Shown: positions 5,634 to 53,614, counted from the stretch's first letter. The stretch: DNA of 64,000 nucleotides from an uncultured Spirochaetota bacterium (GCA_963745235.1 CAVUXE010000099.1:165431-229430); one strand, 5' to 3'. A program made the numbers and translations. The notes: generated by a model not told the origin, from the letters alone.

Positions 5634-6389
5634 TTATCGATCGTACCGCACGATGGGAAGGAACGTTTCCGGCTTCAGGGAAGCCCCGCCCACCAGCGCC
5701 CCGTCGATGTTTTCCATCTTCATCAGATCCTTGATATTGTCCGGCTTGACGGACCCGCCGTACTGGATGGTCATGGCCTGCGCCGCCTTCTGCCCGTATA
5801 GACTTGGCCAGCACGCCCCGAATGAACGCGTGCACCGCGTCCGCATCCTGCGGAGTGGCGTTCTGCCCGTCCCGATGGCCCAGACCGGCTCGTACGCAAT
5901 TGTGACCCTGGCCAGGTCCTTTTCCGCCACTTCGGCGAGGCCCGCGCGGGTCTGCGTTTCCACGACCTTCTCCGTGACGCTCTTCTGCCGCTCATCCAGG
6001 GTCTCCCCGACGCAGAGGATGACCTCGAATCCTTCCGCGAGGGCCAGCCGAACCTTGCGGTTCACCAGCGCGTCGGTTTCACCGTAGACGTGCCGTCTCT
6101 CCGAATGCCCCAGGATGATGACCGCGACTCCCGCGTCCGGAAGCATCCGTGGGGAGATTTCCCCGGTGTGCGCGCCTTCCAGCTCGGACGCCGCGTTCTG
6201 CGCCCCCAGGAGAATCGGGGAGCCCTCCAGCACGTCCCGAACGGCATGCAGCGCCGTGAACGGCGGGGCGATCATGATCTTCCTGTTCTTCTCACCGGAG
6301 AGCTCCGTCGCAAGGATGGTTGCAACGGCTATGGCCTCTCCAGCGGTCTTGTACATCTTCCAGTTGCCGGCGATGAACGGTTGGCGCAT
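5634..6389 (-). CDS. tpiA: Triosephosphate isomerase (two compensating indels near 5800 and 5860)
   Basis: FIAGNWKM, GHSERR, AYEPVWAIGTG, YGGSVKP, LVGGASL; segment DADAVHAFIRGVL reads in the alternate frame. Confidence 0.96.
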   Translation of the reverse strand: MRQPFIAGNWKMYKTAGEAIAVATILATELSGEKNRKIMIAPPFTALHAVRDVLEGSPILLGAQNAASELEGAHTGEISPRMLPDAGVAVIILGHSERRHVYGETDALVNRKVRLALAEGFEVILCVGETLDERQKSVTEKVVETQTRAGLAEVAEKDLARVTIAYEPVWAIGTGRTPLRRMRTRCTRSFGACWPSLYGQKAAQAMTIQYGGSVKPDNIKDLMKMENIDGALVGGASLKPETFLPIVRYDR

Positions 6390-6394
6390 ACGGC

Positions 6395-7576
6395 TCACCT
6401 GTCCTTGAGGGCGACGACGCCCGGAAGCTGTTTGCCCTCCAGCAGCTCGAGGGACGCTCCGCCTCCGGTGGAAACATGCGTGATCCTGTCCGCCAGGTGG
6501 AACTGGTTGACGGCCGCAACGGAATCTCCGCCGCCGACAACCGTCGTTCCCTTGCAATCTGCCACGGCTTTTGCTATCTCCTGGGTTCCCTTGCTGAACT
6601 CGGGGAACTCGAAAACCCCCAGGGGCCCGTTCCAGACCACCGTCCTGGCCTTGAGGATCTTCTCACGGAAAAGGGCAACGGACTTCGGGCCGATGTCCAT
6701 GGCGATCTTGTCTGCCGGCACGTCTGCGCCGTCAACGATTTCGGCTTTGGCCGTTTCCGCAAACTCGGAACCCACCCGGTGGTCAACGGGGAGGAGAACT
6801 TCGGCGCCCGCGCTTTTGGCCTTCTCCAGAAACGACGATGCGGTTGCCATGAGGTCCTCTTCCACAAGCGAGTTTCCGACTGACCGGCCCTGGACCTTGA
6901 GGAATGTGTATGACATGCCGCCGCCGATAATCATGGTGCTGACTCTGGGGAGAAGCGACTCAAGCACGGCGATCTTGGTGGAAACCTTCGCGCCGCCAAT
7001 GATGGCTACGAAAGGCTTGGCCGGGTTCTCGAATACGCCGCCAAGAAACTTGATTTCCTTTTCCATCAGGAAGCCGGCCACGCCGGGCAGGATCCGTGCC
7101 ACTCCTTCCGTGGAGGCGTGCGCCCGGTGAGCGGTCCCGAAAGCGTCGTTGACGTAGACGTCTCCCAACGCCGCCAGCTGCGCGGCGAAGGCGGGATCGT
7201 TCTTTTCCTCTTCCGGGTGGAAACGCACGTTCTCCAGGAGAACGACGTCCCCGGGTTTCATGGCCTTCACAACCGCTTCCGCGGCTGGACCCACGCAGTC
7301 CGGCGCAAGCGTCACCTTCTTCCCAAGGAGCTCAGAGAGCCTTTGCGCAACCGGAGCGAGGCTGTTTTCCTTGTCAGGCTTCTTGGGCCTGCCAAGGTGG
7401 CTCATGAGCACCAGCGAGGCTCCCTTCTGATCCAGGACGTACGTGAGTGTCGGCAGCGCGGCCGTAATGCGGGTATCATCCGTGATTCTTCCTTCTTTCA
7501 GGGGAACGTTGAAATCAACGCGGACGAGCACCTTCTTGTTCCTTAGATCGATGTCCCGTACAGTTTTCTTCGCCAT
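6395..7576 (-). CDS. pgk: Phosphoglycerate kinase
   Basis: [36 protein letters not shown]. Confidence 0.98.
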
Positions 7577-7629
7577 GAGTGGTCTCCTTGGGCGTCAGTC
7601 CTCACAGGAAAGCGGGATTTGGCGGCGTT

Positions 7630-7658
7630 ACTATAGGAAAAAGGCGTCTGAGTGTCAA
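7630..7658 (-). promoter_or_regulatory. Sigma70-type promoter for pgk-tpiA-secG
   Basis: Minus strand TTGACA-17 nt-TATAGT. Confidence 0.75.
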
Positions 7659-7674
7659 TGGGAACGGGAGGCGC

Positions 7675-37915: not shown

Positions 37916-39820
37916 CTATTCGGGCGGGAGCGGGATGTCCATAAGGGGCACCGAGGGCCCCGCTGGCTCACCGATCAGAGGCAGGTATACGCTGACAGAG
38001 GTGCCCAGCCCGACCGTGCTTTCCACGATGACAAAACCACCGAGCTGCCGGATTATCCCGTCCACGATGGAGAGTCCAAGGCCGCTCCCCTGCCCCACGT
38101 CCTTGGTCGTAAAGAACGGCTCGAAGATATGAGACATGGTGACGCGATCCATGCCGATGCCCGTGTCCCTCATCGTGATGAGCGCGTAGTCTCCCGGACC
38201 CATGTCTGCCGGCATCCCCTGGGCTTCAGGTCCGATCCTGGCGGCGTGCCCTTCGATCCATAGTCTTCCCCTGCCGCTCATGGAGTCCCGCGCGTTGGCC
38301 GCGAGATTCAGGATGACCTGCTGAAGCTGGCTCGGGTCCACATTCACCCAGATCGGCTGGTCTCCGGTCCCCAGGACCAGCTCGATCTCTCTCCCCAGGC
38401 AGTTCCTCAGCGCCTCCTCCGCGTTTCGAAGGAAATCGTTCAGGTCCCGAACGACCGGCTGGATCATCTGCTTTCTGCTGAAAGCGAGCAGCTGTCGCGT
38501 GAGGGATGCCGCCCTTTGCGCGGCGTCGTTGATCACGCCGACGCTGCGAAGCACTTCCCGTTCGTCGCCGATCCGGTGCCTGATCAGGTCGCAGAAGCCA
38601 ATGATGGCCTGGAGAATATTGTTGAAGTCGTGCGCGATCCCGCCGGCCAGCCTGCCGACCGCCTCCATCTTTTTCGCCTGGGCCACCTGCTCTTCCAGCC
38701 GTCTGCGTTCGGTAATGTCGCGCGCAACGACAATGAAATGCGCATCCGGCGAGCGATGATCTCCGATTGCAGAGATGGACGGCTCAAACCACCTCTCTTC
38801 CCCGTCAAAAAGTACCGAGTATGTTTCCCCCGTGTGCTTCCCGGACTTCACCGCTTTCGAAAGCGCTCCCATGCCGACCGCGGCGGCGTCCGGGGGAAGT
38901 ATGTCTTTCATCGTCCTGCCGACAAAGACTTCGGGCGGGGCGACGAGCCGCTCCCGATGAGGCGTGGGCAATCCATAGAAGCGGCCATCCCGGTCGACCT
39001 CGAAAAGGAGATCGGGAACCGCGTTGAGCACCGCCTCCAGGTGCGCATGGCTGTCCAGCAGCGCCAGCTCCGCGCACTTCTGCGGAGTGACGTCCATGGC
39101 AAAGCAGAGCACCGCCGGCATGCCCTCCCACGCCATCTCTCTGGCCCTGACCTCGAGCCACCTGGCCGCGCCGCCCGCGCCGAGCATCCGAAGCGTTGCG
39201 GCTTCTTCCCTGCCGTTTCCTTCCAGCGCATTCCTCATCAGCTCGAGCGATGCCTGATGATCCTCCGGATGGAACAGCGACGCGAACGGCAGGCCTTTCA
39301 GGCTCTCTTCCGAGCGGGCCACTGACCTCACCATTCCTCTGTTGATGAGCACGAGGCGGGAGTCCCGGACCACGCAGATTGCCTGCGGAGCCATTTCGAT
39401 CAGGTCCCGATATCGCTTCTCCGCATCATGGGCAGCCTTTTCAGCGAGCTCCCTTTCGTGGACCGTCCTTTTGAGCGCTCGCAGGCTGTCACTGAGCTTG
39501 CCGACGGCAACCGCGATGACCAGGTAAGCGAGGGAGGTTTCCAGCGCGGACATGATCCATACCGCGTCCAGCCCGTGGTGCCGCAGGAGGAGATACTCCA
39601 GGGAGAAAGCCAGCCGTATGAAGACTATCCCCATCAGGGCAGACAGGAACCCGGCGCGCTGACCCCATCTCCACGCAATCAGTATCAGCGGCACCGTGAA
39701 CAGGATTGCGAAAGTCTGGCCGCCGGGCAGGAAATGTATGGAGATGAGAAAACCCACAACGAAGATGGCCACGCACGACAAGGTCAGGGCCCCGTACCGC
39801 ATTGCGGGAAGCGAGGTCAT
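37916..39820 (-). CDS. Membrane PAS-PAS sensor histidine kinase (CckA/NtrB-like, no receiver domain)
   Basis: N-terminal TMs, two PAS domains, LAGGIAHDFNNIL, NLAANARD, DTGIGMD, FEPFFTTK, GSGLGLS. Confidence 0.92.
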   Translation of the reverse strand: MTSLPAMRYGALTLSCVAIFVVGFLISIHFLPGGQTFAILFTVPLILIAWRWGQRAGFLSALMGIVFIRLAFSLEYLLLRHHGLDAVWIMSALETSLAYLVIAVAVGKLSDSLRALKRTVHERELAEKAAHDAEKRYRDLIEMAPQAICVVRDSRLVLINRGMVRSVARSEESLKGLPFASLFHPEDHQASLELMRNALEGNGREEAATLRMLGAGGAARWLEVRAREMAWEGMPAVLCFAMDVTPQKCAELALLDSHAHLEAVLNAVPDLLFEVDRDGRFYGLPTPHRERLVAPPEVFVGRTMKDILPPDAAAVGMGALSKAVKSGKHTGETYSVLFDGEERWFEPSISAIGDHRSPDAHFIVVARDITERRRLEEQVAQAKKMEAVGRLAGGIAHDFNNILQAIIGFCDLIRHRIGDEREVLRSVGVINDAAQRAASLTRQLLAFSRKQMIQPVVRDLNDFLRNAEEALRNCLGREIELVLGTGDQPIWVNVDPSQLQQVILNLAANARDSMSGRGRLWIEGHAARIGPEAQGMPADMGPGDYALITMRDTGIGMDRVTMSHIFEPFFTTKDVGQGSGLGLSIVDGIIRQLGGFVIVESTVGLGTSVSVYLPLIGEPAGPSVPLMDIPLPPE

Positions 39821-39903: not shown

Positions 39904-40755
39904 CTAGGCTTTCAATCCAGTCATTGTAATGCCCTGGACGAAATACTTCGAGAGAAACATGTACAGCAGGAGCAGGGGGACGCAGGCAATCACGCTTACC
40001 GCGAGCTGCTCGGGGTACGGGGTGTTGTAGCCTCCCTTGAAGAGGGCAATCCCCTGGGGAAGCACCCGCATGTCGGGATTGGAGATGACGATCAGCGGCC
40101 AGATGAGCAGGTTCCACACCCACTGGGCATGAAAGATCACCAGCGCCAGGAGAGCCGTACGGGCCATGGGAATGGCGATCCTGCCGAAGATGACATATTC
40201 ATTTGCCCCATCCATGCGGGCACTTTCGACGTAGTCGTTTGGAAGAGAATAGAAGAACTGTCTCATCATGAACACGCCGAAAGCGGTCAGACCCTCGGGG
40301 ATCACAAGCCCCCAGTAGGTGTTCTGCAGTCCCATCCGCCGCACCAGGATGAAAAGCGGCACCACGATGGCCTCGAAGGTGATCATGAGTGTCGCCAGCA
40401 CAACGGTGAAGAGCAGCGTGTTGCCCCGGAAGCGGTACTTCGCAAAACCATAGCCGGCCGTGGCGGACAGAAACAGGCAGAGGAGGACTGCCAGCGCGGT
40501 GACGATGACGCTGTTCAGGATGAACCGGGGAAAATTGAAGTCGGGAAACGCGGTGAAGACGTTGTAGTAGCTCTTCCAGTTCCAGACAGGCGGGAGGAAC
40601 CTGATGGGGATGGCCAGGACGTCTTTGTTCAGCTTCACCGAGGAAATGACCATCCAGAAAAAAGGAAAGACGAAAGCCAGCCCGAGGATGATGAGAACAG
40701 CATAGAGAACGGTCCTCTGGATGCGCAGCGTGGTTCGGTAGGAAGGGGCAGCCAC
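39904..40755 (-). CDS. Carbohydrate ABC transporter permease (MalG-like)
   Basis: 6 TM, ESARMDGA EAA loop, WNLLIWPL. Confidence 0.93.
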   Translation of the reverse strand: MAAPSYRTTLRIQRTVLYAVLIILGLAFVFPFFWMVISSVKLNKDVLAIPIRFLPPVWNWKSYYNVFTAFPDFNFPRFILNSVIVTALAVLLCLFLSATAGYGFAKYRFRGNTLLFTVVLATLMITFEAIVVPLFILVRRMGLQNTYWGLVIPEGLTAFGVFMMRQFFYSLPNDYVESARMDGANEYVIFGRIAIPMARTALLALVIFHAQWVWNLLIWPLIVISNPDMRVLPQGIALFKGGYNTPYPEQLAVSVIACVPLLLLYMFLSKYFVQGITMTGLKA

Positions 40756-40758
40756 CGG

Positions 40759-41646
40759 TCATTCCCCCACTGTGCCCGACCTGAACAGCCGGAGCTGAAA
40801 GATCGAGAACACGAGGAGCGTCATGAAGAAAAGCACCGAGATTGCCGCGGAATAGCCGAACTTGCCGAACTCGAAGGCCTGGCGGAAAAGGAGCAGGGAG
40901 AGGATTTCCGTGGACCTGCTCGGGCCGCCCTTGGTGATGACGTACTGGATTGAGAACTGCCCGAAGGTGAAGATGATGCTGGATATCACTGCCAGGGCGA
41001 TGGTGTTCCTGATGGAGGGAAGCGTGACATACACGAGCTGCTGCCAGAAACCCGCGCCGTCCATGCGGGCGGCTTCGTAGAGGCTTACCGACACATCGAG
41101 AAGTCCCGCGATGTAGATCACCATGTAGTAGCCCACGGACTTCCAGACATACGTGATGATGATTGCGTAGGGGGCCGCCGCCGTGTTCGTGAGCCACGCG
41201 GGGCTTGCCCCGAAGACCAGGCGCGTGAGGATGGAGATCAGGCCCGTGGACTGGTACATGAACTCCCACACCACTCCGACTGCCACGATGGAAAGGATGA
41301 CGGGAAGAAAGATCAGGGACTGCAGGAGGTTCTTGTGACGGATCAACCTGCTGCCGAACATGAGCGCAAACGCGAAGGCAAGCACGTTGATGGCTGCAAC
41401 GCTGACCGCGCTGAAGTGCAGGGTGCGCAGGTACGAATTGACGACCCCTTGATCGAAAGCCATGGAAACGAAGTTCTTGAATCCGACGAACTTCTGGGGA
41501 GTGAGCAGGTTCCACTCGAAGAGCGAGAGCCGAAAAGCGCTGACCATCGGGTAGATCAGAAAGATCGAAAAGAAGATGAGCGTTGGCAGAATGAACACGT
41601 AGCCGTGGCGCTGCAGACGCGCCACCGAATAGCTGGCCTTTCGCAT
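40759..41646 (-). CDS. Carbohydrate ABC transporter permease (MalF-like)
   Basis: WKSVGYYMVIYIAGL...LYEAARMDGA, TKGGP. Confidence 0.93.
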   Translation of the reverse strand: MRKASYSVARLQRHGYVFILPTLIFFSIFLIYPMVSAFRLSLFEWNLLTPQKFVGFKNFVSMAFDQGVVNSYLRTLHFSAVSVAAINVLAFAFALMFGSRLIRHKNLLQSLIFLPVILSIVAVGVVWEFMYQSTGLISILTRLVFGASPAWLTNTAAAPYAIIITYVWKSVGYYMVIYIAGLLDVSVSLYEAARMDGAGFWQQLVYVTLPSIRNTIALAVISSIIFTFGQFSIQYVITKGGPSRSTEILSLLLFRQAFEFGKFGYSAAISVLFFMTLLVFSIFQLRLFRSGTVGE

Positions 41647-41668
41647 GTCCCTCCCCGCCGGGAAACCG

Positions 41669-41699
41669 GCGTCCCCGGAGAGCCTTCCTCCGGGGACGC
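41669..41699. other. Intercistronic stem-loop after the solute-binding gene (likely mRNA stabiliser)
   Basis: GCGTCCCCGGAG-7 nt-CTCCGGGGACGC perfect 12-bp stem. Confidence 0.7.
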
Positions 41700-41713
41700 G
41701 CGGATGACAATCC

Positions 41714-43007
41714 TTACTGGTAGATTCCCTTGATATCGCTCTGCAGCTGCGTCACGGAGTCTTCAACGCTCATGTTCTGGAAGATCACCCTGGAGATCGC
41801 GTCCCAGACCGCTGATGGTGACCTGGTTGCCCTTGGTGGAAGACAGCCACACCGCGGGTTTCGCCAGCTCTCCCTTGAACACCTGGTCGTAGTAGGGGAT
41901 GTACTTCCTGGCCAGGGTCGGGTCCAGGGCCTGCTTTCCGTTGGACAGCGTCACGCGGGGCTGGTGATAGCCCTGCTTGATGAACTCGTTCGGCTGGCTT
42001 GCCATGGTGTCGAGCCACTCGAAGGTCAGCGTCGGGTCCTTGGCCAGGCGCGACACGTAGAGGCAGTAGCCATAGCCGACTCCGCCAATGTCCTTTCCAT
42101 CCGTGAAGCGCGGATACGGGAAGGGCTGGACGTCCTTGCGCTTCACGGAGTAGGTGTCAAGCACGCCCCAGTACCAGGTTCCGCCCGTGAGGAACATCCC
42201 CGACTTCCCCGTGCCAAAGCCTTCGCGGTCGTTGCTCGCCAGCGCGGGGTCCCAGATCTTGTCCGTGGTCACGAAGTCCGTGTAGGTCTTCAGACCACGC
42301 ACCAGCGCATCTGTCTGGTCCATGGACGCGATGAATCCCTTCTCCGTCCCCCAGTCCAGCCCGAGCTGCTCCATCATGGCCAGGATCACGAGGAAGTTGA
42401 AGATACCTTCCTTGGAGTTGCACATGAACCCGTTGCGGACGGTGACGCCGTTTTCCACCTTGACCAGCTTCTTTGCCACCGCAACGAAATCTTCCCATGT
42501 CTTGGGCATATCGGTCTTCGGGTTCAGACCGGCTTCCTTCATGAACGCGGTGTTGATCCAGCCCACATAGTCGGACAGCTCGAAGGGGATGCCGTAGTAC
42601 TTCCCATCCCAATACCCGCCGCAGGTTTCGATTGCCCCCGGGGTCCACATCTTTACCACATCGTCGACGGACTGCTTGCCGAACCCCTTGGGGTCGATCG
42701 GAACAGCCTGTCCGGCGGAGAGAAACTCCGCGGATTCGCCGTTGCTCAACGCGAAGCTGTCGATCTGCCCGTTGGCTGCCAGGACCGTCCTGATGATATT
42801 CGCCCGGTCCCCGTCCGGCAGGAGCAGGAGCTTCACCTCGACGTCAGGGTGCTTCTTTTCGAATATTTTCACCGCGTTGAGGTTGATCGGATCGTAAATG
42901 GTTTCCGTCCAGTGATAGCTGACGATCACCTTTTTTGCGGGGGCCGCCCAACCGAAACTCACAAGGGTCAGCAGCGCTACAAGACTCACGACAGCCCGTT
43001 TTGTCAT
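41714..43007 (-). CDS. Sugar-type ABC transporter solute-binding protein (C-terminal frameshift near 41815)
   Basis: Signal peptide, GKYYGIPF, PKTWEDF, FGTGKSGM; true end in an alternate frame ...SVEDSVTQLQSDIKGIYQ* at 41714. Confidence 0.9.
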
Positions 43008-43082
43008 ATCCTCACCTCCGTGCCGTGGCAGATGCCCGTGCGGCCAGGGATTTTCCTCGGTCCCAACGAGACCGTTCCGCCC

Positions 43083-43916
43083 CTAGAGCTTTCTTTTCTC
43101 CAGGGTTTTTTCTGCCAGCTCCACGTATGTCATCACGGTCGCCTCGAAGTCAGCCTTGCCCTTTTCCGGGGTGGCGTCCCGGGGGTCCGTCTGCACGACC
43201 CTTCCCGGGCTGGGATGCTCGCTGAAACCCGCCCCGTCCACGACGGAGAAATCCGGATAGCGGATCGGCACGCTCCGCGGGGGGAGCGCGGAGAGATCCA
43301 CGATCTTTTCCCCGCCAAGAAACTGCTTCGCGATGTACAGCATGATGGAAGTCTCGGAAAGATCGGCGTGTCCGGCCAGGTCCTTTTCCGACACGTCGCG
43401 GGCGATTGCCAGCTTCCAGACGACGGTGGTGTCCGTGGTGTTGCTGTAGTGTTTCGCCAGGCGATCCAGGGTCTGCAGCTGGTTCCAGGCGCCGTGGCCG
43501 TTCACGATGACGATGACCTTGTAAGCCTGGGAGATCAGCATCTCCAGGGTGCTCGCCACCATGAGACCAAAGAGGTGCTCCTGGTAGTAGTGGCTCTTCC
43601 ACGTGGCCGTCGGGAAATCCATGCCGACGACCCACTGGTCTCTCTTGAACCCCAGGCTCTCCAGCATCCACTCCGGCCGCTCCCGCTCAGTCCCCATGTA
43701 CAGCGTGGGCATTACCACTCCCCTCCCCAGCCTGCGGCAGACCTCCAGCGCGCACTGGGTGGCGTTGATCGGATCCGTGCCGACGGGGAGATGCGGCCCG
43801 TGGTATTCGAGGGGCGCCACGGGAAGGAAGACGATGGGGCAGCGTTGGAGCTCCTCCCGCAGTGACGCGGGCCGGAGCATCTCGAACCGGATCTCACGAG
43901 CGCTCACTCTCCCCAT
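43083..43916 (-). CDS. Creatininase-family amidohydrolase (paralog 1; start uncertain)
   Basis: APLEYHGPHLPVGTD, VNGHG, GHADLSETS, DATPEKG. Confidence 0.9.
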   Translation of the reverse strand: MGRVSAREIRFEMLRPASLREELQRCPIVFLPVAPLEYHGPHLPVGTDPINATQCALEVCRRLGRGVVMPTLYMGTERERPEWMLESLGFKRDQWVVGMDFPTATWKSHYYQEHLFGLMVASTLEMLISQAYKVIVIVNGHGAWNQLQTLDRLAKHYSNTTDTTVVWKLAIARDVSEKDLAGHADLSETSIMLYIAKQFLGGEKIVDLSALPPRSVPIRYPDFSVVDGAGFSEHPSPGRVVQTDPRDATPEKGKADFEATVMTYVELAEKTLEKRKL

Positions 43917-43970
43917 CCTTTCACGCCTATCCAAAGATAGTATCCATCCATCATCAGGTCGAATCTCCCC

Positions 43971-44786
43971 TCACTGACCGCCCAGCGCCTCGCGCGCGCG
44001 GCGGAGCGAATCTCCCGGTTCGAGAGTCGGCCAGTACTCGAGGCCGAAGCAGCCGGTGTATCCCAACCGGTCCACCTCATGCACGATTGCCGGATAGTTC
44101 AGCTCTCCCCGGTCCAGCTCATGTCTTCCCGGCACTCCGGCCAGGTGGAAATGGCCGACCCAGGAAAGGTTCTCCTTGAGGAAAGTAAGGATATTTCCGC
44201 CCATGATCTGCATGTGGTAGACGTCGAACAGCATGCGGGCGCTCGGGCTGTTCACCGCGCGGAGGATATCCACGCACGCCTGAGGATCATCAAGGAAGCA
44301 ATCAGGGTGATCTATCTTCGTGTTGAAAGGCTCGAGGAAGAGGGTCACCCCGCGCTTCTGGCAAACGCGGGCTATGGCGGACAGGCTCTCGATGAGGCAT
44401 TCCGTTGACTCCTGCCGGGACTGGCCGGGCACCCTGTTTCCGCTGCCGCTGATGAACGCCTTGCACCCGATGCTTTGCGCCCTGTCGATCATCCCCTCGA
44501 TGGAGTCCAGGAGCATCCCACGGTCTTTCCTCTGGACGAGGGACGCCCTGATCCCCCCGTCGGGGTGATTGAAAACAAGGGCGGCTGTCGTCAGGCCATA
44601 CTTCGCATTGAGCTCTGCGATCTGGCGGAAATCCTTCTCTTCGGGCACCAGTCCCTTTCCGTCGTAGCGCCTGTCATGGAACCAGAACTCGTAGGTGGTG
44701 AAACCCAGCTCCGCGACCTTGCGGATGCGGTCCGCGTAAGGGAGCCAGGAGAAAAACGGCTCAATGCAGACACTCAGCTTCACCAT
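43971..44786 (-). CDS. Hyi/xylose-isomerase-like TIM-barrel isomerase/epimerase
   Basis: YEFW, LEPFNTKIDHP, LFDVYHMQIMGGN, HFHLAGVPGRHE...GELNY, GLEYWP. Confidence 0.88.
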   Translation of the reverse strand: MVKLSVCIEPFFSWLPYADRIRKVAELGFTTYEFWFHDRRYDGKGLVPEEKDFRQIAELNAKYGLTTAALVFNHPDGGIRASLVQRKDRGMLLDSIEGMIDRAQSIGCKAFISGSGNRVPGQSRQESTECLIESLSAIARVCQKRGVTLFLEPFNTKIDHPDCFLDDPQACVDILRAVNSPSARMLFDVYHMQIMGGNILTFLKENLSWVGHFHLAGVPGRHELDRGELNYPAIVHEVDRLGYTGCFGLEYWPTLEPGDSLRRAREALGGQ

Positions 44787-44794
44787 GAAAGCTC

Positions 44795-46081
44795 CTACAG
44801 CACCACCGAGGCGACCTTTCGGATGGCTTCCACCATCTCCCGGCAGTCCCTCTCGGACAGCTGGGGAGGAATGTCCAGGTGTACCGATCTGCCGAGCCAT
44901 TCCATGGTCTTCGGGCAGTCGTCCGGACGGTAGTCGGGCACGGGGCCGCTCAGGGGGCAGTTGAACGGGCAACCTTTCGGGACGGGCATCATCTTCTCTA
45001 TGAGCATCTTCCAGTGGGGATAGACATGCCAGTCGGGGACTCCCTTGTCGTAGATGCCGCCCGCCTCAACGCCTTCTGCGTGCAGAGCTTCCACGAACCG
45101 CTCCACCTGTTCGGGCCGGGGCAGAAAGAAGATGAGACAGATGGCCGTGTCTCCCGCGGCATCCGTCACGTCCCGCATCTGGAGCTTCGACAGGTCGGAG
45201 ATGCCTTCCTTGATGATCTTCTTGTTGTGCCGCATGCGCGACACCAGGGAGTCCAGCTTCCTGAATTGCGCCAGGGCCACGGCGCCGGTCAGCTCGCTCA
45301 TGCGGTAGTTGACGCCGAAGAAGATCTCCCCCGCGAACTCCGGCGGCGCGAAGCGATCCTTTCGCCAGCAGGCGGCCACGTCGTGGTAGGCCTGGGCGCG
45401 GGTGTACAGCAGGTCATCGTTTGTGCAAAGGATCCCGCCCTCGCCGGCGGTGATGACCTTGTGGAATTGCAGGGAGAAACAGCCGACATCGCCAATCCCG
45501 CCGAGGGGTTTGCCCTGGTAGCTTCCCCCGTTCGCCTGCGCAACATCTTCAATCACGCTCAGCTTTCGTCGTCTGGCGATCTCCATGATCCGGTCCATCC
45601 GTGCAGGCATGCCACGCATGTGCACGGGAATCACCGCCCTGGTGCGCGGGGAAATCTTTCTTTCCAGGTCGGCCGGGTCCATGGTGAGGGACCCATCGAC
45701 CTCTGCAACAATGGGAATGGCCCGCGCTGCAACAACTGCGGCGCACGTGGCGAAGAAAGTGTAGGACGGGACTATCACCTCGTCTCCCGGTCCGACCCCG
45801 ACGGCTACAAGCGCGGTGATCAGGGCCGAGGTGCACGAGTTGAGCGCAAGAGCGTGCTCCGAGCCGACGTAGGCTGCGTACTGCTCTTCGAGGGCCTTTA
45901 CCTTGGAGGGGGCGTCTTTCGGTCCGTAATAGCGGAAGAGATACTTGTTGTCCAGGACTTCCATCACCTCCCGCTTTTCCTCAGCGCCTATCTCCAGTCC
46001 GCCGGGGAACATCGGGTAGTTCGGCGATTTCTTTGCCTTCGGTCCGCCATTGATGGCCAGGTCTGACTCAGTGTAGCCCAT
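44795..46081 (-). CDS. DegT/DnrJ/EryC1/StrS PLP aminotransferase (paralog 1)
   Basis: LAINGGP N-terminus, GPGDEVIVP, IEDVAQANG, FSLQFHKVITAGEGG (PLP Lys), NYRMSEL. Confidence 0.93.
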   Translation of the reverse strand: MGYTESDLAINGGPKAKKSPNYPMFPGGLEIGAEEKREVMEVLDNKYLFRYYGPKDAPSKVKALEEQYAAYVGSEHALALNSCTSALITALVAVGVGPGDEVIVPSYTFFATCAAVVAARAIPIVAEVDGSLTMDPADLERKISPRTRAVIPVHMRGMPARMDRIMEIARRRKLSVIEDVAQANGGSYQGKPLGGIGDVGCFSLQFHKVITAGEGGILCTNDDLLYTRAQAYHDVAACWRKDRFAPPEFAGEIFFGVNYRMSELTGAVALAQFRKLDSLVSRMRHNKKIIKEGISDLSKLQMRDVTDAAGDTAICLIFFLPRPEQVERFVEALHAEGVEAGGIYDKGVPDWHVYPHWKMLIEKMMPVPKGCPFNCPLSGPVPDYRPDDCPKTMEWLGRSVHLDIPPQLSERDCREMVEAIRKVASVVL

Positions 46082-46154
46082 GGAATCAGCTCCTCGGTTA
46101 ACTGCAATTTCGATTCCAGAACTTTGGTCTTGGAATCACCGCCCTGGCAATTAC

Positions 46155-46187
46155 GTTGAACTTAAGCTCAACTTCTCGGGCGGTCAA
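46155..46187 (-). promoter_or_regulatory. Promoter (TTGACC-17-TAAGTT) overlapped by an 18-bp palindromic operator candidate GTTGAACTTAAGCTCAAC
   Basis: Palindrome at 46155..46172 (16 of 18 positions symmetric) covers the -10; -35 at 46182..46187. Confidence 0.6.
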
Positions 46188-46216
46188 GTTTTTCTCCCGG
46201 GGATAAAGTCTCTTTT

Positions 46217-47053
46217 TTACGAAAGTCTTTGTCCCGAAAGAAAGCGGCGAATGTCCGCTACCGCCTCTTTGGCTGCCTCATCAACGAGCGTCATCCCCGT
46301 GGCCCGGTCTGTATGGCGACGAGGATCCTGCTCTTCCCGCACGGTGAAGTCTTTCGTCGGAGAGCCATCAAAGGTGTCTCCATCCACGATGGCGTGGTCG
46401 ATGTTGCGAAGCGGCCCGGTGGCCGGCAGCCGGGACAAATCCACGCAGTCCGGCCACGTTGCGCTCAGCATGGAGGACTCCTCAGCGGTGGCGTGACCGA
46501 TTGATCCTGCCACGAGGGAACGGGGAAATCCCGGATAGACCCACATGAGCCGGCTCTTCCCGCGGGAGTTGTATTCCGCGCAAAGCCTGTCCAGCACTCC
46601 CTTCTGGTTGTCAGCCCCGTGACCATTCACGATGACCACCGCCTGAAATCCCATTCTTTCCAGGAGCGAATCCACTGCGCCGCGCACCGCGATGCCGAAC
46701 ACTTCCTCTTTCACATAAGCGCTTTTTATCGGGTTGGCGGGGAAATCCATCCCCTCGATGAACTCGGTGCCCGTGAACCCCAGAGACGTGAGCGTAGCGG
46801 GTCGGCGCTCCCGTTCCGTGCTCAGGTAGAGGGGCGGAAAGTAAGGACAGCGCATCTCGCGGGAAATCCTGCGCGCAAAGGCGTGAGCCAGCAGTCCGTC
46901 GCAGCCCATGGCAAGGTGAGGGCCGTGCCACTCAATCGGAGCGACAGGCAGGACGACGAGGCCCGTCCGTGATCTCGCCTCTTCCACTTCATCAGGGAAG
47001 AGGAACGCCATGTTCCAGTCACCCTCATCAACAGGCCTCTTCATCGCTCCCAT
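46217..47053 (-). CDS. Creatininase-family amidohydrolase (paralog 2)
   Basis: APIEWHGPHLAMGCD, VNGHG, GHATAEESS; ATG 47053 follows AGGAGAGGTG. Confidence 0.9.
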   Translation of the reverse strand: MGAMKRPVDEGDWNMAFLFPDEVEEARSRTGLVVLPVAPIEWHGPHLAMGCDGLLAHAFARRISREMRCPYFPPLYLSTERERRPATLTSLGFTGTEFIEGMDFPANPIKSAYVKEEVFGIAVRGAVDSLLERMGFQAVVIVNGHGADNQKGVLDRLCAEYNSRGKSRLMWVYPGFPRSLVAGSIGHATAEESSMLSATWPDCVDLSRLPATGPLRNIDHAIVDGDTFDGSPTKDFTVREEQDPRRHTDRATGMTLVDEAAKEAVADIRRFLSGQRLS

Positions 47054-47081
47054 GATCACCTCTCCTTCTCCTGCAATCGAT

Positions 47082-47099
47082 GGAGTTGATATCAGCTCC
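47082..47099. promoter_or_regulatory. Palindrome GGAGTTGATATCAGCTCC in the divergent intergenic region
   Basis: 16 of 18 positions symmetric; lies between creatininase 2 and aminotransferase 2. Confidence 0.45.
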
Positions 47100-47150
47100 C
47101 CGAGCATTGCAATATGGGGTAATTCGCACAGGAAGAGGGAGGCTGGAAAT

Positions 47151-48383
47151 ATGCCGGGACCCGGTTTCGAATGGATAGGAGCCGAAGAAGAAAAGGAAGT
47201 CCTCGACGTTCTGCGCTCGAGGTGGCTCTTCCGATATGGCGACGAGAAAGACCCGCAGTTCAAGCGAAAAGTCAAGAGCCTGGAAGAAATGGTCGAGAAG
47301 GACTTCGACACACGGCATGCTCTTGCGGTCACCTCCGGAACAGCCGCCCTGATCACGGCGCTCTCAGCGCTGGGCATCGGGCCGGGGGACGAGGTCATCG
47401 TTCCCGGCTACACCTTCATCGCTTCGATCTCCTCCGTCATCATCGCTCGCGCGGTCCCCGTGCTTGCCGAAGTGGATGAAAGCCTCACCCTGGACCCCGA
47501 GGACATTGAAAAGAAGATCACGCCCCGGACCCGGGCAATCATGGCGGTTCACATGCTCGGGAATCCGTGCGACCTGTCCAGGATCGAAGCTGTGGCGCGC
47601 AAGCACAACCTCATCCTCATCGAGGACGCCGCGCAGGCGTTTGGCGGGTCCTGGAAGGGAAAGAAACTGGGGACAATCGGACGCATCGGGATCTATTCGT
47701 TCAACATCTTCAAGACCATCAACGCCGGGGACGGCGGGATGGTAGTGACCGACGACGACGAGCTGTACTTCCGCGCTTTCGGCTATCACGATCAGGGCCA
47801 CTTCCCCAGCCGCTCAGGGGTGGAGGTTGGCAACCGTTCGATCATAGGACAGAACTACCGCATGAACGAGATCACCGGTGCAGTGCTGATCGCCCAGTTC
47901 CGACGGCTGTCGAATATCATTGAGCGCCTCAGCTACATCAAAGCGCGGATGAAGAAGCAGCTCCAGGGAGCTGCGGGAGTGAGCTTCCGCCGCATCAACG
48001 ACCCCGAGGGGGAATGCAATACCCTGCTCACAGTGTTTCTCCCCAGCAGGGACGTCGCTGAGAAGGTGGCCGTCAGGCTCGGAACCGTGACCATGACGAA
48101 ATCCGGCTGGCACGTATACAACAACATGGAGCAGATCCTGGGCAAGAAGATGATCACGGAGCACGGCTGCCCGTACAACTGTTCCTGCTACCCGGCCGCA
48201 ACGGACTACCACAAGGGGATGCTCCCCCGGACGGACAGGCTGCTGGAAAGAGCAATCAACATCTCCGTGGGCGTGGTGGACAAAGGCCTGGGCTCGGCGT
48301 TCGGAATCCACCCTCACTCCACGGACCAGGAAATCGACCAGAAGGCCGCGGAGCTCATCACAGCGGTGAAGGAATCCCTGTAG
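47151..48383 (+). CDS. DegT/DnrJ/EryC1/StrS PLP aminotransferase (paralog 2, KdnA-like N-terminus)
   Basis: MPGPGFEWIGAEEEKEVLDVL...LFRY, IEDAAQAFG, YSFNIFKTINAGDGG, NYRMNE; GGGAGG ribosome-binding site. Confidence 0.93.
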   Translation: MPGPGFEWIGAEEEKEVLDVLRSRWLFRYGDEKDPQFKRKVKSLEEMVEKDFDTRHALAVTSGTAALITALSALGIGPGDEVIVPGYTFIASISSVIIARAVPVLAEVDESLTLDPEDIEKKITPRTRAIMAVHMLGNPCDLSRIEAVARKHNLILIEDAAQAFGGSWKGKKLGTIGRIGIYSFNIFKTINAGDGGMVVTDDDELYFRAFGYHDQGHFPSRSGVEVGNRSIIGQNYRMNEITGAVLIAQFRRLSNIIERLSYIKARMKKQLQGAAGVSFRRINDPEGECNTLLTVFLPSRDVAEKVAVRLGTVTMTKSGWHVYNNMEQILGKKMITEHGCPYNCSCYPAATDYHKGMLPRTDRLLERAINISVGVVDKGLGSAFGIHPHSTDQEIDQKAAELITAVKESL

Positions 48384-48471: not shown

Positions 48472-48936
48472 ATGAAGGGAAACCCAAGGCTTATCGAGAC
48501 TTTGAACTCGCTGCTCGCTGATGAGCTCACGGCTATCAGCCAGTACATGGTTCACTCGGGGATGTGCGAAAACTGGGGCTACGGCAAGCTTCATGACCAC
48601 TTCGAAAAGCGGGCCATTGACGAGATGAAGCACGCGGAGAAGCTCATCGGCAGAATCCTTTTCCTGGAGGGGATTCCCGTTGTCAGCCGGCTGCTGGACA
48701 TGCACATCGGGCCGGAGGTCCCCCAGCAGCTTGAAAACGATCACTCGGCCGAGGCGGGCGCCATCAAGGCGTACAACGCGGCGATAGTCGTTGCCGGTGA
48801 GGCCGCGGACTTCGCCACGCGCGAAGTCCTCGAAAGCATCCTGAAGGACGAGGATCGGCACATAGACGACATCGAAGCCCTGCAGGACCAGGTTCGCCAG
48901 ATGACAGTGCCCGTGTTTCTCAGCATCCAGGTTTGA
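48472..48936 (+). CDS. bfr: Bacterioferritin
   Basis: MKG...ELTAISQYMVH, DEMKHAEKLIGRILFLEG, EDRH ferroxidase and heme Met motifs. Confidence 0.95.
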   Translation: MKGNPRLIETLNSLLADELTAISQYMVHSGMCENWGYGKLHDHFEKRAIDEMKHAEKLIGRILFLEGIPVVSRLLDMHIGPEVPQQLENDHSAEAGAIKAYNAAIVVAGEAADFATREVLESILKDEDRHIDDIEALQDQVRQMTVPVFLSIQV

Positions 48937-50656: not shown

Positions 50657-53614
50657 ATGGCATCCCGAGGAAAGAAGACAAAGTCGACAGGTCAAAAAGA
50701 CATCCTTCTTGGCCGTCAGGCTGAGATGGACCTCATCTTGCATCGCCTGGAGGAAGCACGGGCAGGAAAGGGCTGTTTCCTGGCCATCAGCGGCGAGCCC
50801 GGCATCGGCAAGACTCGGCTTGCTCAAGCAGCGACCATCGCCGCGAAGAAAAAGGGATTCCATGTATCCTGGGGCCAGTGCCACGATGGCCAATACATTC
50901 CACCCTACTGGCCATGGAAGCAGCTCCTGAGAGACACACTTGGCCTTCTGCCACAGCGCGCTTCGGCACAGAGCAGGGGAATTTTGAATGCTCTGTCGGA
51001 GATCGTCGCAAGCGCACCCCGAGACCACTCGAGAACGCCAGAGATGCCGAAACCGATCTCCCAAAAGGCGAGGTTGAAGATTCTTGAGTCCGCGACGCTT
51101 CTTGTTCGCATGATCTCGGAAAACGACCCCGTGCTGCTGGTTCTCGACAACCTGCACTGCGCGGATGTGCCGTCACTCCAGCTTCTTCAGGTCATGTCGA
51201 GCGAAACGAGTGGTTGCCCTGTTGTCATCATCGGTTCCTACAGGGAGCCCTCGGCCCTGGCAGGCGGCGCGTTCCGTGAAATCATAGGCGCGCTCGCGGG
51301 GCAATCCTTCTTCGAAAGCATCCCTCTGGCGGGATGGGATGCCTCTGGAGTTCAGGAATGCCTGATACAGCATGGGATCGAGAACCCTCCCCTGCAATTG
51401 ACCAGGGCGGTCTTTGAGCGCACCAACGGCAACCCGTTGTTCGTGCTGGAAGTCGTACGACTGCTCCGCCAGAGGGGGCTGCTCGACTCGTTGTCTGGTG
51501 CCCGACCGTGGGAAACTCTCATTCCGCAGAAAGTCCGCCTGGCCATTCTAGGCCTTTTCGAGCGCTTGACCGCGCCTTGCAAGAACGCGCTTGCCGCTGC
51601 GGCACTGGTTGGACGGGAGTTCGAGAGTCGGTTCCTGCAGGAAGTGGCAGGAGAAGATGGTTCTTCCATCGAGCCCCTTTTCGAGGAAGCTCTCGCCCAT
51701 GGCTTGATCCAGGGGATCGATGAGAGGCCGGGGTTCTTCCGATTTGTACACGCCCTCGTTCAGGATGTCATTCGGGAGGAAACCCCCGTTCTTCGAAGGC
51801 CCTTGCTGCACGTAAAGATTGCGGAGGCCTCGGAACGCCGCCTCGGAAAGGATCTGGAGGCTCACGCGGGAGAGTTGGCACGGCATTTCCAGGCGGCGGG
51901 AGGCAATCACGCGGAGAAAGCGATTCATTACTACAGCATTGCTGGAGAAAACGCTCTTCGGATGTGCGCTTACGAGGATGCACACGAGCAGATTACTCGG
52001 GCCCTCCACCTTGCCGGAGGAGACATTCTCCCGTCGAAAATGGCACGCCTTCTGTTCGGGATGGGTCAGTCACTGCACGGGCTGGGGAGGGTCATGGAAG
52101 CTGCCGAGTGCCATGCGAGGGCTTTTGCGCTGTTTGTGAAAAGCGGTGAGATTGACAACGCGGTGCAGATCTTCGAGCAACCGCTGATCCTCATGGAGAA
52201 GCCTGCCAATCTCACAAAGGTCCTGGAAGAAGCGATATCGCTTGTTGGTTGGAGCTCCCTCCGGGGGGAGGCGCTTGGCGGAAAGTACGGACTTGCCGTC
52301 TATCATGACACGGGCGACTATTCGAGAGCTGCCGCGATTTTCGAGAAAGCCGTCAGGTCGGCACGAGCGTCGGGAGATGTCCAGCAGGAAATGACCGCTT
52401 TGACGAACTGGGGACGAATCGAAGCCGACCAGCTCCAGTTCGAGACGGCGTTGTCGATTGAAAAGGATGCCATGCGCGTCGCAACGGAGAACGGCGAGCT
52501 TTGGATAGAGGCCATTGTTCATATTACAAGCGCGCTGGCGTCTCTTGGTCTCGGGCGTATCCAGGAAGGAGAAAATCAAGCCCGATTGCTCAGCGCGCTG
52601 GCCGGTCGCCTGCAAACGGGCCTGTGGAACGCAATATCCTCGGTCTTGTCCTCTGCTATTCATCGACAGAAAGGCGAGCTCCGATCCGCCTTTGATGTCA
52701 CCGACCGCGCGATTGCCTCGGGAGAGCCGAGTTTCCTGGTTTTGAACCAGGCCATCAGGACTCTGCTGCAATACGAGATCGGAGAGGCGGACGCCGCGAA
52801 AGAGCTTCTTCAGAAAGTCATCGCGGGAGCCAACCAGGCAGTGCGGCCTTTCCACTGGGAGGGCCTCCTGGCCGTGCTGATTCCATTCGTCGCGTGGGCG
52901 ACGGGCGACGCCGTGCCCCTGGAGATCGCGGAGAGAGCCGCGGGAGAAGTTCCGCTCTACGGCGGCCTGCGACGGGGCGACGCGGTGACTGTGAGTCTCG
53001 GGCTGGGCTTGATAGCAGCGATTCGCAAGGACCGCGAATCTGCAAGACGGCATTACGAAGAGCTGCTCCCGTTTCGAGGGCTGGTGGCGCACCCCTATCT
53101 GGGCCTGGCGACGGATCACGTCCTGGGGATCCTGGCGTGGACCGTCGGAGACACTGCCGAAGCGCGCACGCATTTCGACTCTGCAGTCGATTTTTGCCGC
53201 GCCAACGGGCTTCGCATCGAGCTCGCATACACGTGCCGAGACTATGCGGAGTTTCTGCTGCAAGTCGCGGGCAAGGCGGAACAGCAAAAGATCCTCCACC
53301 TTTGCCGAGAGGCAATTCCCATTGCGGAGGCTTCGGGTCTCGTTCATTTGACGGGAAGGCTCGCACAGGTTCGTGACGCCGCGGGTCATGGCAAACCCGG
53401 TCGGCCCGAGTTCCCCGACTCACTCAGCGAAAGAGAGGTCGATGTCCTTCGACTCATCAGCCAGGGCTTGAGCAACGCGCAGATCGGGGAGCGGCTTTTC
53501 ATCAGCCTGCATACCGTTGCCAACCACGTTCAAAGCATTCTCGAAAAAACGGGCGCAGCCAACCGCACCGAAGCCGCGGCCTACGCGATACACCACCACC
53601 TGACGAGCGACTGA
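50657..53614 (+). CDS. STAND-type (MalT/LAL-like) ATPase-TPR-LuxR transcriptional regulator
   Basis: GRQAE, GEPGIGKT, LLVLDNLH, RTNGNPLF, FVHALV, TPR-like helices, LSEREVDVL...GLSNAQIG...TVANHV. Confidence 0.9.
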   Translation: MASRGKKTKSTGQKDILLGRQAEMDLILHRLEEARAGKGCFLAISGEPGIGKTRLAQAATIAAKKKGFHVSWGQCHDGQYIPPYWPWKQLLRDTLGLLPQRASAQSRGILNALSEIVASAPRDHSRTPEMPKPISQKARLKILESATLLVRMISENDPVLLVLDNLHCADVPSLQLLQVMSSETSGCPVVIIGSYREPSALAGGAFREIIGALAGQSFFESIPLAGWDASGVQECLIQHGIENPPLQLTRAVFERTNGNPLFVLEVVRLLRQRGLLDSLSGARPWETLIPQKVRLAILGLFERLTAPCKNALAAAALVGREFESRFLQEVAGEDGSSIEPLFEEALAHGLIQGIDERPGFFRFVHALVQDVIREETPVLRRPLLHVKIAEASERRLGKDLEAHAGELARHFQAAGGNHAEKAIHYYSIAGENALRMCAYEDAHEQITRALHLAGGDILPSKMARLLFGMGQSLHGLGRVMEAAECHARAFALFVKSGEIDNAVQIFEQPLILMEKPANLTKVLEEAISLVGWSSLRGEALGGKYGLAVYHDTGDYSRAAAIFEKAVRSARASGDVQQEMTALTNWGRIEADQLQFETALSIEKDAMRVATENGELWIEAIVHITSALASLGLGRIQEGENQARLLSALAGRLQTGLWNAISSVLSSAIHRQKGELRSAFDVTDRAIASGEPSFLVLNQAIRTLLQYEIGEADAAKELLQKVIAGANQAVRPFHWEGLLAVLIPFVAWATGDAVPLEIAERAAGEVPLYGGLRRGDAVTVSLGLGLIAAIRKDRESARRHYEELLPFRGLVAHPYLGLATDHVLGILAWTVGDTAEARTHFDSAVDFCRANGLRIELAYTCRDYAEFLLQVAGKAEQQKILHLCREAIPIAEASGLVHLTGRLAQVRDAAGHGKPGRPEFPDSLSEREVDVLRLISQGLSNAQIGERLFISLHTVANHVQSILEKTGAANRTEAAAYAIHHHLTSD

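Follow-up and report, generated by a model that had tools for sequence, protein, structure and literature searches.

Aminotransferases of the DegT family are mostly biosynthetic. KdnA, which acts in the Kdo8N route of Shewanella, is biosynthetic too and works with the alcohol dehydrogenase KdnB. The review PMC4402001 has Kdo converted directly to Kdo8N before incorporation, that is, the substrate of KdnA is not nucleotide-linked. The creatininase family (PF02633) holds the amide-hydrolysing enzymes creatininase, ArfB and MftE, and also IolN, which NCBIfam names a 3-dehydro-scyllo-inosose hydrolase and which belongs to the inositol pathway of Thermotoga maritima. That pathway comprises IolG, IolM, IolN, IolO, a ROK regulator and an ATP-binding cassette (ABC) importer, and its TIM-barrel enzyme IolO is a 5-keto-L-gluconate 4-epimerase according to PMC12632266. 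Here we analyse a stretch of 64,000 nt from an uncultured Spirochaetota bacterium (GCA_963745235.1 CAVUXE010000099.1:165431-229430), which we call the window, in which a cluster of eight genes at 39904-48383 brings such enzymes together. It encodes two ABC permeases (PermA and PermB), a solute-binding protein (SBP), two creatininase-family hydrolases (Cre1 and Cre2, collectively Cre), two DegT aminotransferases (DegT1 and DegT2) and a xylose-isomerase-like TIM barrel (TIM) (Table 1). A sequence-only reading had proposed this gene list; an open reading frame (ORF) listing together with Pfam and NCBIfam confirms all eight genes, their domains and their strands.

We read the cluster, with a probability of roughly 45%, as an uptake-and-processing island that would bring in an N-substituted amino sugar, free its amine by Cre-catalysed hydrolysis, convert it to a keto sugar through DegT transamination and then isomerise the product. 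The substrate may be a small glycoside containing such an amino sugar, and the enzymes would act on free, not nucleotide-activated, sugars. The enzyme superfamilies, and the general form of an importer-linked sugar utilisation island, are known. What appears to be undescribed is the chemistry, in which free-sugar DegT transaminases would work with a new creatininase-family clade. We found no description of a creatininase and DegT system, or of DegT amino-sugar catabolism, in a literature search whose coverage largely excluded subscription journals and which is therefore weak evidence.

Creatininase-family and DegT genes recur together in several phyla

Relatives of the cluster were collected in a Cre-alignment scan that took one genome per species and yielded 80 loci (numbered with the prefix L) from Spirochaetota, Atribacterota, Planctomycetota, Verrucomicrobiota, Kiritimatiellota, Lentisphaerota, Chloroflexota, Actinomycetota, Methylomirabilota and one Bacteroidota bin. 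The window proteins and 14 neighbour proteins from these loci were mapped onto all 80 by tblastn, and co-occurrence was then counted. A DegT gene lay within 10 kb of Cre in 31 loci, all of them among the 53 whose Cre shares 46% identity or more with Cre1 and none among the 27 more distant ones. Broken down by identity to Cre1, the association was seen in 17/29 loci at 54% or more, in 14/24 at 46-53% (within 300 bp in 12 of these), in 0/23 below 46% and in 0/4 in which the best match is Cre2. Because only 15 of the 29 closest loci (Cre at least 54% identical) have 5 kb of flank on both sides, the counts for this class are lower bounds. These closest loci are from Spirochaetota, Atribacterota and unclassified organisms, and the 53 closer loci are from Spirochaetota, Atribacterota, Planctomycetota, Kiritimatiellota, Lentisphaerota and, in some rows, Chloroflexota. 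In a quick maximum-likelihood tree (IQ-TREE, SH-aLRT support only), the DegT-linked Cre1 sequences formed one clade of 46 rows (SH-aLRT 99). These results show that the gene grouping is not due to chance, as its parts recur across many species and several phyla.

Across the relatives the cluster resolves into two separable modules, DegT2 with Cre1 and the ABC importer, and Cre2 with DegT1 and TIM. Orthologues of DegT1 (at least 69% identity) occur in eight loci and are followed by TIM in 8/8, whereas orthologues of DegT2 (at least 57%) occur in 15 loci and are followed by a gene for a GFO/IDH/MocA oxidoreductase in 14 of them, the exception being L012. Of the 29 closest loci, 19 have orthologues of the window importer next to Cre1; PermB orthologues of 56-82% identity adjoin Cre1 in relatives, as do orthologues of PermA and SBP matches of 46-79% identity, several of which are partial. 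Orthologues of Cre2 were found in only 5/80 loci and the complete window gene set in only 2/80 (L001 and L053). Co-occurrence of the genes elsewhere had been set as a check in the sequence-only reading, and it bears out for DegT near Cre in the closer loci but not for the set as a whole.

The separability of the modules is the basis of one rival explanation, according to which the importer with Cre1 and DegT2, Cre2 on its own, and DegT1 with TIM are independent modules that deal with different compounds and are neighbours by chance. DegT1-TIM moves as a unit and takes up varied positions and orientations relative to Cre1-ABC (L011, L014 and L015), the rarity of Cre2 and of the full set fits the same idea, and L016 has Cre2-Cre1-ABC without any DegT in the available sequence, including about 9 kb upstream. 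Against this, no more than about 6 kb separates the modules in the eight loci with a DegT1 orthologue. The 80-locus scan moreover understates the co-occurrence of Cre1 and Cre2 because it was seeded with Cre1 motifs. At least ten equal 'longest contig' sizes (for example 140,175; 193,069; 518,056; and 2,097-6,949 bp) are common to the lists of the 120 best Cre1 and the 120 best Cre2 homologues, which, judging by the sizes alone, implies that the two genes are frequently closely linked. The paralogous enzyme pairs also suggest variations on one chemistry. The explanation is partly true, in that the modules are separable, but as an account of the whole cluster we consider it unlikely.

A new clade of creatininase-family hydrolases

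Cre1 and Cre2 are 37% identical in a pairwise alignment and DegT1 and DegT2 42%, so that both are old paralogue pairs. E37, H39, D48, H141, H183 and E188 are invariant across 84 Cre sequences, and a profile alignment matches the invariant E-x-H...D, G-H and H...E positions to the metal-binding residues and the catalytic histidine of creatininase, at sites that we take to be E34, H36, D45, H120, H178 and E183 of that enzyme. A conserved Cre segment at alignment positions 75-110 has nothing aligned to it in creatininase. The AlphaFold2 model of Cre1 (pLDDT 94.7) has structural matches solely to creatininase-fold proteins, at TM 0.60-0.64 and 17-22% identity. Scores for Cre1 and Cre2 were 52 and 39 bits with the creatininase model TIGR04448 (cut-off 235), 45 and 36 bits with the MftE model TIGR03964 (cut-off 172), and 30 and 21 bits with the IolN model NF041098 (cut-off 245), the last over the N-terminal 65 residues only. 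The IolN model matches 76 of the 84 Cre proteins, with a best E of 3e-14, and the ArfB model NF033501 gives weak matches in 7 of the 84.

Homologues are abundant, with 809 database clusters for Cre1 and 908 for Cre2 at E<=1e-10; the best 120 of each are 66-100% and 64-99% identical to the query, respectively, and the two lists overlap. Identity within the Spirochaetota part of the Cre clade is 65-85%. A plasmid collection queried with the Cre1 protein gave just two distant matches (27-32% identity), and an ESM Atlas search returned 'creatininase family' clusters only. Together with the missed model cut-offs, the structural matches make the Cre proteins a new clade within a known fold of metal hydrolases. 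Cre2 sequences form a separate clade of five rows on a long stem (SH-aLRT 100), all of which adjoin DegT1-TIM, and on this evidence Cre2 is a distant lineage rather than a twin of Cre1.

A fusion search recovered five longer Cre proteins. Two are tandem Cre-Cre proteins (P0241, 580 aa, and P0242, 594 aa), the remaining three carry extensions that have no Pfam domain and are unlike any neighbour gene, and none of the five is a Cre-DegT fusion. Adjacent Cre gene pairs or tandem Cre arrangements were also seen at L055:9180-10792 and L016:8949-10825. The tandem fusions and adjacent pairs suggest that two different Cre paralogues may act as one hetero-oligomeric enzyme, and given that such fusions exist, two Cre genes need not imply two separate deacylation steps. 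An apparent fusion of Cre with a URO-D protein in L030 was rejected as an ORF-calling artefact, as the two parts lie in different frames and the Creatininase model does not match the long ORF. The sequence-only reading had argued from two hydrolases and two aminotransferases to a compound with two N-substituted amino groups; with two separable modules, a full set in so few loci, a distant Cre2 lineage and tandem Cre-Cre fusions, that stoichiometric argument no longer stands. The di-N-acyl diamino sugar or streptamine-type cyclitol that it put forward is a hypothetical substrate.

KdnA-like aminotransferases, a TIM barrel and a carbohydrate importer

Both window aminotransferases carry the Schiff-base lysine motif, as do 37 of 39 DegT matches overall, and the best solved relative of both is KdnA (5k8b), with 259 bits for DegT1 (E 7.7e-76, residues 26-423) and 279 bits for DegT2 (residues 4-373). 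The runners-up score 185 bits (8gyh, for DegT1) and 168 bits (for DegT2), perosamine synthetases acting on nucleoside-diphosphate (NDP) sugars reach 167-168 bits with the DegTs, and lower down the list are scyllo-inosose and 2-deoxy-scyllo-inosose aminotransferases (142-154 bits) and NtdA (89 bits). The nucleotide-sugar aminotransferase models LegC, PseC, WecE, ArnB and DesI all scored below cut-off, the best being LegC at 185 bits against 420. Near the C-terminus, both proteins have a G-C-P-[FY]-N-C (C-x3-C) motif, at residues ~366-376 of DegT1 and ~337-347 of DegT2. This motif is present in six of eight DegT1 orthologues (two matches are truncated) and in the closer DegT2 orthologues; neither the DegT2 proteins of the L006-L015 group nor the aligned segment of KdnA has it.

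TIM scored below cut-off with the models for hydroxypyruvate isomerase (TIGR03234, 130.9 bits against 353), 2-oxo-tetronate isomerase (NF043033, 124 against 325) and IolO (61 against 300), and its best solved relatives are 3ngf and YgbM. By sequence it falls in the Hyi/OtnI group, yet it is neither of the named enzymes. The best NCBIfam matches of the permeases, both below cut-off, are GlcU/UgpE/MalG-like for PermB and GlcT/UgpA/MalF-like for PermA, so that the locus has the binding protein and the two MalF/MalG-type permeases of a CUT1-type importer. Among the 79 ORF translations scanned across the window we found no transport ABC ATPase, at the locus or elsewhere, and the sole ABC_tran match was UvrA. 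CUT1 systems often use a shared ATPase encoded elsewhere. The solved relatives of SBP are distant and all sugar-binding, the best being the arabino-oligosaccharide binder 6rjy (E 1.6e-13).

The island in related genomes

In Spirochaetota and Atribacterota, a fuller island recognised with Pfam and NCBIfam contains genes for a NagC-like ROK regulator, DegT2, the GFO/IDH/MocA oxidoreductase, Cre1, the ABC importer and, often, one or two BshB-like PIG-L deacetylases. Among the 29 closest loci, the NagC-like ROK is found in 14 and the PIG-L deacetylases in 13, and both are hallmarks of hexosamine metabolism. Occasional additions are a second, xylose-isomerase-like TIM barrel and sulfoquinovose-isomerase-like, ceramidase-like, nitrilase-like and URO-D-like proteins. 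The oxidoreductase beside DegT2 has levoglucosan dehydrogenase as its best NCBIfam match (103-353 bits against a cut-off of 650), and inositol 2-dehydrogenase IolG is second best for three of the four enzymes scanned. The window is a reduced version of this island. In L001 and L053, the nearest relatives with the complete set, ROK genes (L001:4363-5580 and L001:6444-7700) fill the two gaps that in the window measure just 135 and 97 bp, and a ferritin-like gene (48472-48936) directly follows DegT2 where the relatives have the oxidoreductase. The lack of a dehydrogenase is peculiar to the window and no trait of the system as such, given how regularly the oxidoreductase follows DegT2 in relatives and how common ROK and PIG-L genes are there.

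Loci from Planctomycetota, Kiritimatiellota, Lentisphaerota and Verrucomicrobiota (PVC loci) have a simpler arrangement, in which a gene for a LacI or AraC regulator, the AraC proteins carrying a periplasmic-binding-like domain, is followed by Cre, DegT and an SSF symporter. Glycoside hydrolases of families GH2, 3, 4, 10, 20, 28, 59 and 127 are encoded near this unit. ORF scans of 17 PVC loci found no deacetylase or amidohydrolase Pfam domain adjoining DegT; the same loci gave one weak tblastn match to PIG-L (L042, 26%) and an Asparaginase_2 gene in L037, a locus without DegT. Importers of either type (ABC or SSF), sugar-type regulators and glycoside hydrolases alongside the enzymes argue for uptake and processing rather than envelope synthesis.

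These neighbourhoods bear on a second rival explanation, salvage or biosynthesis, in which an imported sugar or recycled wall fragment would be deacylated, re-aminated or epimerised via a keto intermediate, and fed into the cell's own amino-sugar or envelope metabolism. The largely biosynthetic record of DegT enzymes speaks for it, and so do the GlmS-like and sugar-nucleotidyltransferase-like genes that lie, with a methyltransferase gene, directly upstream of Cre2-Cre1-ABC in L016 (4556-8943), and the GlmU-like gene (NTP_transferase and Hexapep) between Cre1 and PIG-L in L023 (981-2477) and L024 (1190-2734). The pairing of DegT with a GFO/IDH/MocA oxidoreductase also resembles the oxidise-then-aminate logic of NtdC and NtdA, the latter being among the solved DegT relatives. 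By contrast, no activating enzyme, glycosyltransferase or flippase turned up among the window ORFs scanned, and the PVC loci join the Cre-DegT pair with symporters and glycoside hydrolases. In an Atrimonadaceae chromosome, a glutamate dehydrogenase gene (L051:4755-6014) lies directly upstream of the ROK gene that heads a ROK-GFO-DegT2-Cre1-ABC module, and inducible utilisation loci typically carry repressor-type sugar regulators such as those seen here (ROK, LacI, and AraC with a periplasmic-binding-like domain). We therefore think salvage or biosynthesis improbable. The claim of the sequence-only reading that no nucleotidyltransferase, NDP-sugar dehydratase or glycosyltransferase is encoded nearby holds for all 79 ORF translations from the window, and its preference for an importer-linked processing module over envelope-glycan biosynthesis is strengthened by the recurrence elsewhere, by the transporters, sugar regulators and glycoside hydrolases around the genes and by the KdnA-like character of the DegTs.

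Chloroflexota and Methylomirabilota loci lack DegT. Their Cre is flanked on one side by a DUF4380 protein and on the other by a URO-D-like protein together with a corrinoid-binding protein, and the loci also encode a ribose-type ABC system, a xylose-isomerase-like barrel and a ROK regulator; in the Chloroflexota loci no dehydrogenase is encoded near Cre. The URO-D-like (MtaA-type) and B12-binding corrinoid proteins are fused in L071 and L074. The corrinoid context spans about 1-4 kb either side of Cre, which lies at about position 10000, in L044, L045, L068, L071, L074, L077 and L078. Judged by their gene content, these loci may serve the corrinoid-dependent demethylation of methylated sugars, and we found no literature description linking creatininase with corrinoid proteins within the coverage stated above, largely outside subscription journals. 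URO-D-like genes also stand beside Cre in L001, L012, L021, L030 and L053. L012 has a compact variant (2479-8342) in which DegT2 and Cre1 are adjacent without an oxidoreductase gene, followed by the URO-D-like gene and a GH38 alpha-mannosidase gene, and no ABC importer was found within 8 kb.

A proposed route for N-substituted amino sugars

In the uptake-and-processing reading, SBP and the two permeases would import the compound with the help of an ATPase encoded elsewhere. Cre1 and Cre2 would then hydrolyse a carbonyl-nitrogen bond (N-acyl, N-formyl or lactam) to leave a free amine, which DegT2 and DegT1 would pass to a 2-oxo acid, giving a keto or aldehydo sugar. The Hyi/OtnI-like TIM, always coupled to DegT1, would shift the carbonyl to a metabolisable position; in most relatives, the levoglucosan-dehydrogenase-like oxidoreductase beside DegT2, which has no gene in the window, would reduce the keto sugar instead. 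The gene content, the intact catalytic motifs, the two conserved modules and their linkage to importers, sugar regulators and glycan-degrading genes are observed; the substrate, the deaminating direction, the order of Cre and DegT and the amino acceptor we infer. Cre is placed before DegT because it is the only available hydrolase in the minimal PVC unit, and because only removal of a substituent fits the Chloroflexota contexts, which have no diketone-making genes nearby. The hexosamine-type neighbours (NagC-like ROK, PIG-L, GlmS-like and GlmU-like) point to an amino-sugar substrate, and the glutamate dehydrogenase gene of L051 fits transamination to glutamate followed by release of ammonia.

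The main rival is an aminocyclitol version of the Thermotoga pathway. DegT with the GFO/IDH/MocA oxidoreductase (in relatives) or with a second DegT (in the window) would turn an inosamine or 1,3-diaminocyclitol into a 1,3-diketo-cyclitol, Cre, acting as IolN, would open the ring at a C-C bond to give a keto-aldonic acid, and TIM, acting as IolO, would work on this keto acid. NCBIfam does have a creatininase-like IolN and a TIM-barrel IolO, and Cre1 and TIM match them weakly (30 and 61 bits). The relatives share the cast of the Thermotoga pathway (ROK, GFO/IDH/MocA, Cre, TIM and ABC) with DegT in addition, and in nine loci the gene order DegT2-GFO-Cre1 is the proposed order of reactions. Similarly, IolG is the second-best match of most oxidoreductases scanned, the best matches of TIM (Hyi and OtnI) and of the DegTs (KdnA) all act on sugar acids, and scyllo-inosose and 2-deoxy-scyllo-inosose aminotransferases are among the solved DegT relatives.

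Other evidence speaks against aminocyclitols. The IolN and IolO scores are far under their cut-offs, and the IolN match of Cre1 is weaker than its matches to creatininase and MftE and covers the N-terminal metal motif only. The best match of the oxidoreductase is levoglucosan dehydrogenase, neither IolG nor IolM. Loci with Cre, DegT and an SSF symporter, and the Chloroflexota loci without DegT or dehydrogenase, cannot make a 1,3-diketone. The NagC-like ROK, BshB-like PIG-L, GlmS-like and GlmU-like neighbours favour hexosamines, and no uronate-pathway genes turned up in the ORFs scanned. On balance we hold the aminocyclitol route to be doubtful. Its fullest form makes the whole Cre clade a ring-opening C-C hydrolase of anaerobic aminocyclitol catabolism, with the DegTs replacing the Thermotoga inositol dehydrogenases and the two transaminations of the window alone making the 1,3-diketone; its substrates would be compounds of the inosamine or streptamine type, among them products of the breakdown of aminoglycosides or of mycothiol-type GlcN-inositol. 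This we regard as quite unlikely.

Several findings also weigh against the processing of an N-substituted amino sugar. The position of creatininase Glu122 is occupied by Ala in the Cre clade, and none of the 84 Cre proteins reaches the cut-off of the creatininase, MftE, IolN or ArfB NCBIfam models, so that the chemistry of Cre is extrapolated; IolN, a characterised member of the family, is by its NCBIfam name a C-C hydrolase and not an amidase. A Cre deacetylase would be partly redundant in the many Spirochaetota loci that already have PIG-L deacetylases. The solved relatives of SBP are all neutral-sugar binders, and because they are only distant they give no clue to its specificity. In L016, L023 and L024, neighbours that resemble GlmS and nucleotidyltransferases could reflect salvage into biosynthesis and not catabolism. 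Finally, the GFO/IDH/MocA oxidoreductase, ROK and PIG-L proteins of the relatives gave no tblastn match at E<0.1 within the 64-kb window, so that the pathway encoded here may lack steps or take another course.

Were the amino-sugar reading true, DegT transaminases, textbook enzymes of nucleotide-sugar biosynthesis, would gain a widespread catabolic branch acting on free sugars, and a large, strongly conserved and so far unassigned creatininase-family clade would have a function in turning over glycans or necromass. To our knowledge, there are few or no catabolic routes for such unusual amino sugars, and the island would show how uncultured anaerobes of the Spirochaetota, Atribacterota, Planctomycetota, Kiritimatiellota and Lentisphaerota exploit them as sources of carbon and nitrogen. 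SBP, Cre1, Cre2, DegT1, DegT2 and TIM form a compact set of soluble proteins for biochemistry and a good target for enzyme discovery.

Layout of the locus

The starts of Cre1, Cre2 and DegT2 were set shorter than the longest ORFs on the basis of ribosome-binding sites and alignment to relatives, that of DegT2 being placed by its ribosome-binding site; the TIM start, also shorter, is an internal methionine of our own choice. The longest ORFs of Cre2 and DegT2 overlap one another, and the shorter starts leave a divergent intergenic region of 97 bp (47054-47150). This region and the 135-bp gap between Cre2 and DegT1 (46082-46216) each contain one 18-bp palindrome. A scan for promoters and terminators gave counts close to the shuffled expectation.

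Table 1. Genes and candidate regulatory features of the cluster (window coordinates; PLP, pyridoxal 5'-phosphate)
Feature	Position	Strand	Domain match or basis
PermB, ABC importer permease, carbohydrate (CUT1) type	39904-40755	-	BPD_transp_1, 53 bits
PermA, ABC importer permease	40759-41646	-	BPD_transp_1
Perfect inverted repeat, 12 bp with 7-nt loop, between SBP and permease genes; candidate intra-operon RNA hairpin	41669..41699	-	repeat search
SBP, extracellular solute-binding protein of the importer	41763-43007	-	SBP_bac_1, 87.6 bits; SBP_bac_8
Cre1, predicted binuclear-metal hydrolase, creatininase family	43083-43916	-	PF02633, 105.9 bits (cut-off 31.3)
TIM, xylose-isomerase-like barrel, Hyi/OtnI (keto/aldo isomerase) group	43971-44780	-	PF01261 AP_endonuc_2, 123 bits
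DegT1, KdnA-like PLP aminotransferase	44795-46081	-	PF01041 DegT_DnrJ_EryC1, 272.6 bits
18-bp palindrome, Cre2-DegT1 intergenic; candidate operator	46155..46172	.	repeat search
Cre2, second creatininase-family hydrolase	46217-47053	-	PF02633, 86.2 bits (cut-off 31.3)
18-bp palindrome, divergent Cre2/DegT2 promoter region; candidate operator	47082..47099	.	repeat search
DegT2, KdnA-like PLP aminotransferase, divergently transcribed	47151-48383	+	PF01041 DegT_DnrJ_EryC1, 265.6 bits

Three long ORFs, 41730-43865 (+, 711 aa), 40199-41710 (-, 503 aa) and 44879-46066 (+, 395 aa), were rejected as antisense or out of frame to the real genes, typical spurious ORFs of GC-rich DNA. A PAS/HisKA/HATPase sensor kinase gene (37916-39820) lies on the same strand as PermB and 83 bp downstream of it, and a gene for a large LuxR/AAA/TPR-type regulator (50657-53614) lies 2.3 kb past DegT2. 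Both were considered as members of the system and placed outside it, because none of the 80 related loci has a gene corresponding to either.

Comparison with known systems

The adjacency of DegT2 and a GFO/IDH/MocA oxidoreductase in relatives recalls the NtdC/NtdA (kanosamine) pair and the 3-keto-sugar catabolism that depends on levoglucosan dehydrogenase, and its levoglucosan-dehydrogenase-like partner suggests a keto-sugar intermediate. Unlike these systems, the window has no such oxidoreductase; NtdA is a distant relative only, and the pairs known so far serve biosynthesis or have sugars without nitrogen as substrates. With creatininase, ArfB and MftE, the Cre proteins share the fold and the E-x-H...D, G-H and H...E positions. 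They differ from them in their low identity to solved members (17-22%), in missing every cut-off (0/84), in the replacement of creatininase Glu122 by Ala, and in a context that is carbohydrate rather than creatinine, riboflavin or mycofactocin.

The inositol pathway of Thermotoga maritima resembles the window in combining a creatininase-family hydrolase, a xylose-isomerase-like TIM barrel and an ABC importer. Its GFO/IDH/MocA dehydrogenases and ROK regulator are shared with the relatives of the window and not with the window itself, where tblastn at E<0.1 across 64 kb found neither the two dehydrogenases nor a ROK repressor beside the hydrolase. Neither Cre1 nor Cre2 is an equivalog of IolN, TIM is not IolO, and DegT has no counterpart in that pathway.

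The closest likeness of the aminotransferases is to KdnA/KdnB of Shewanella, as KdnA is clearly the nearest solved relative of both DegTs and, according to PMC4402001, uses a substrate that is not nucleotide-linked. The C-x3-C motif of the window DegTs sets them apart from the aligned segment of KdnA, and the window ORFs scanned contain no alcohol-dehydrogenase domain that could stand for KdnB. Instead, the window DegTs are accompanied by an importer, a TIM barrel and creatininase-family hydrolases, and we propose that here the aminotransferases run in the direction of deamination.

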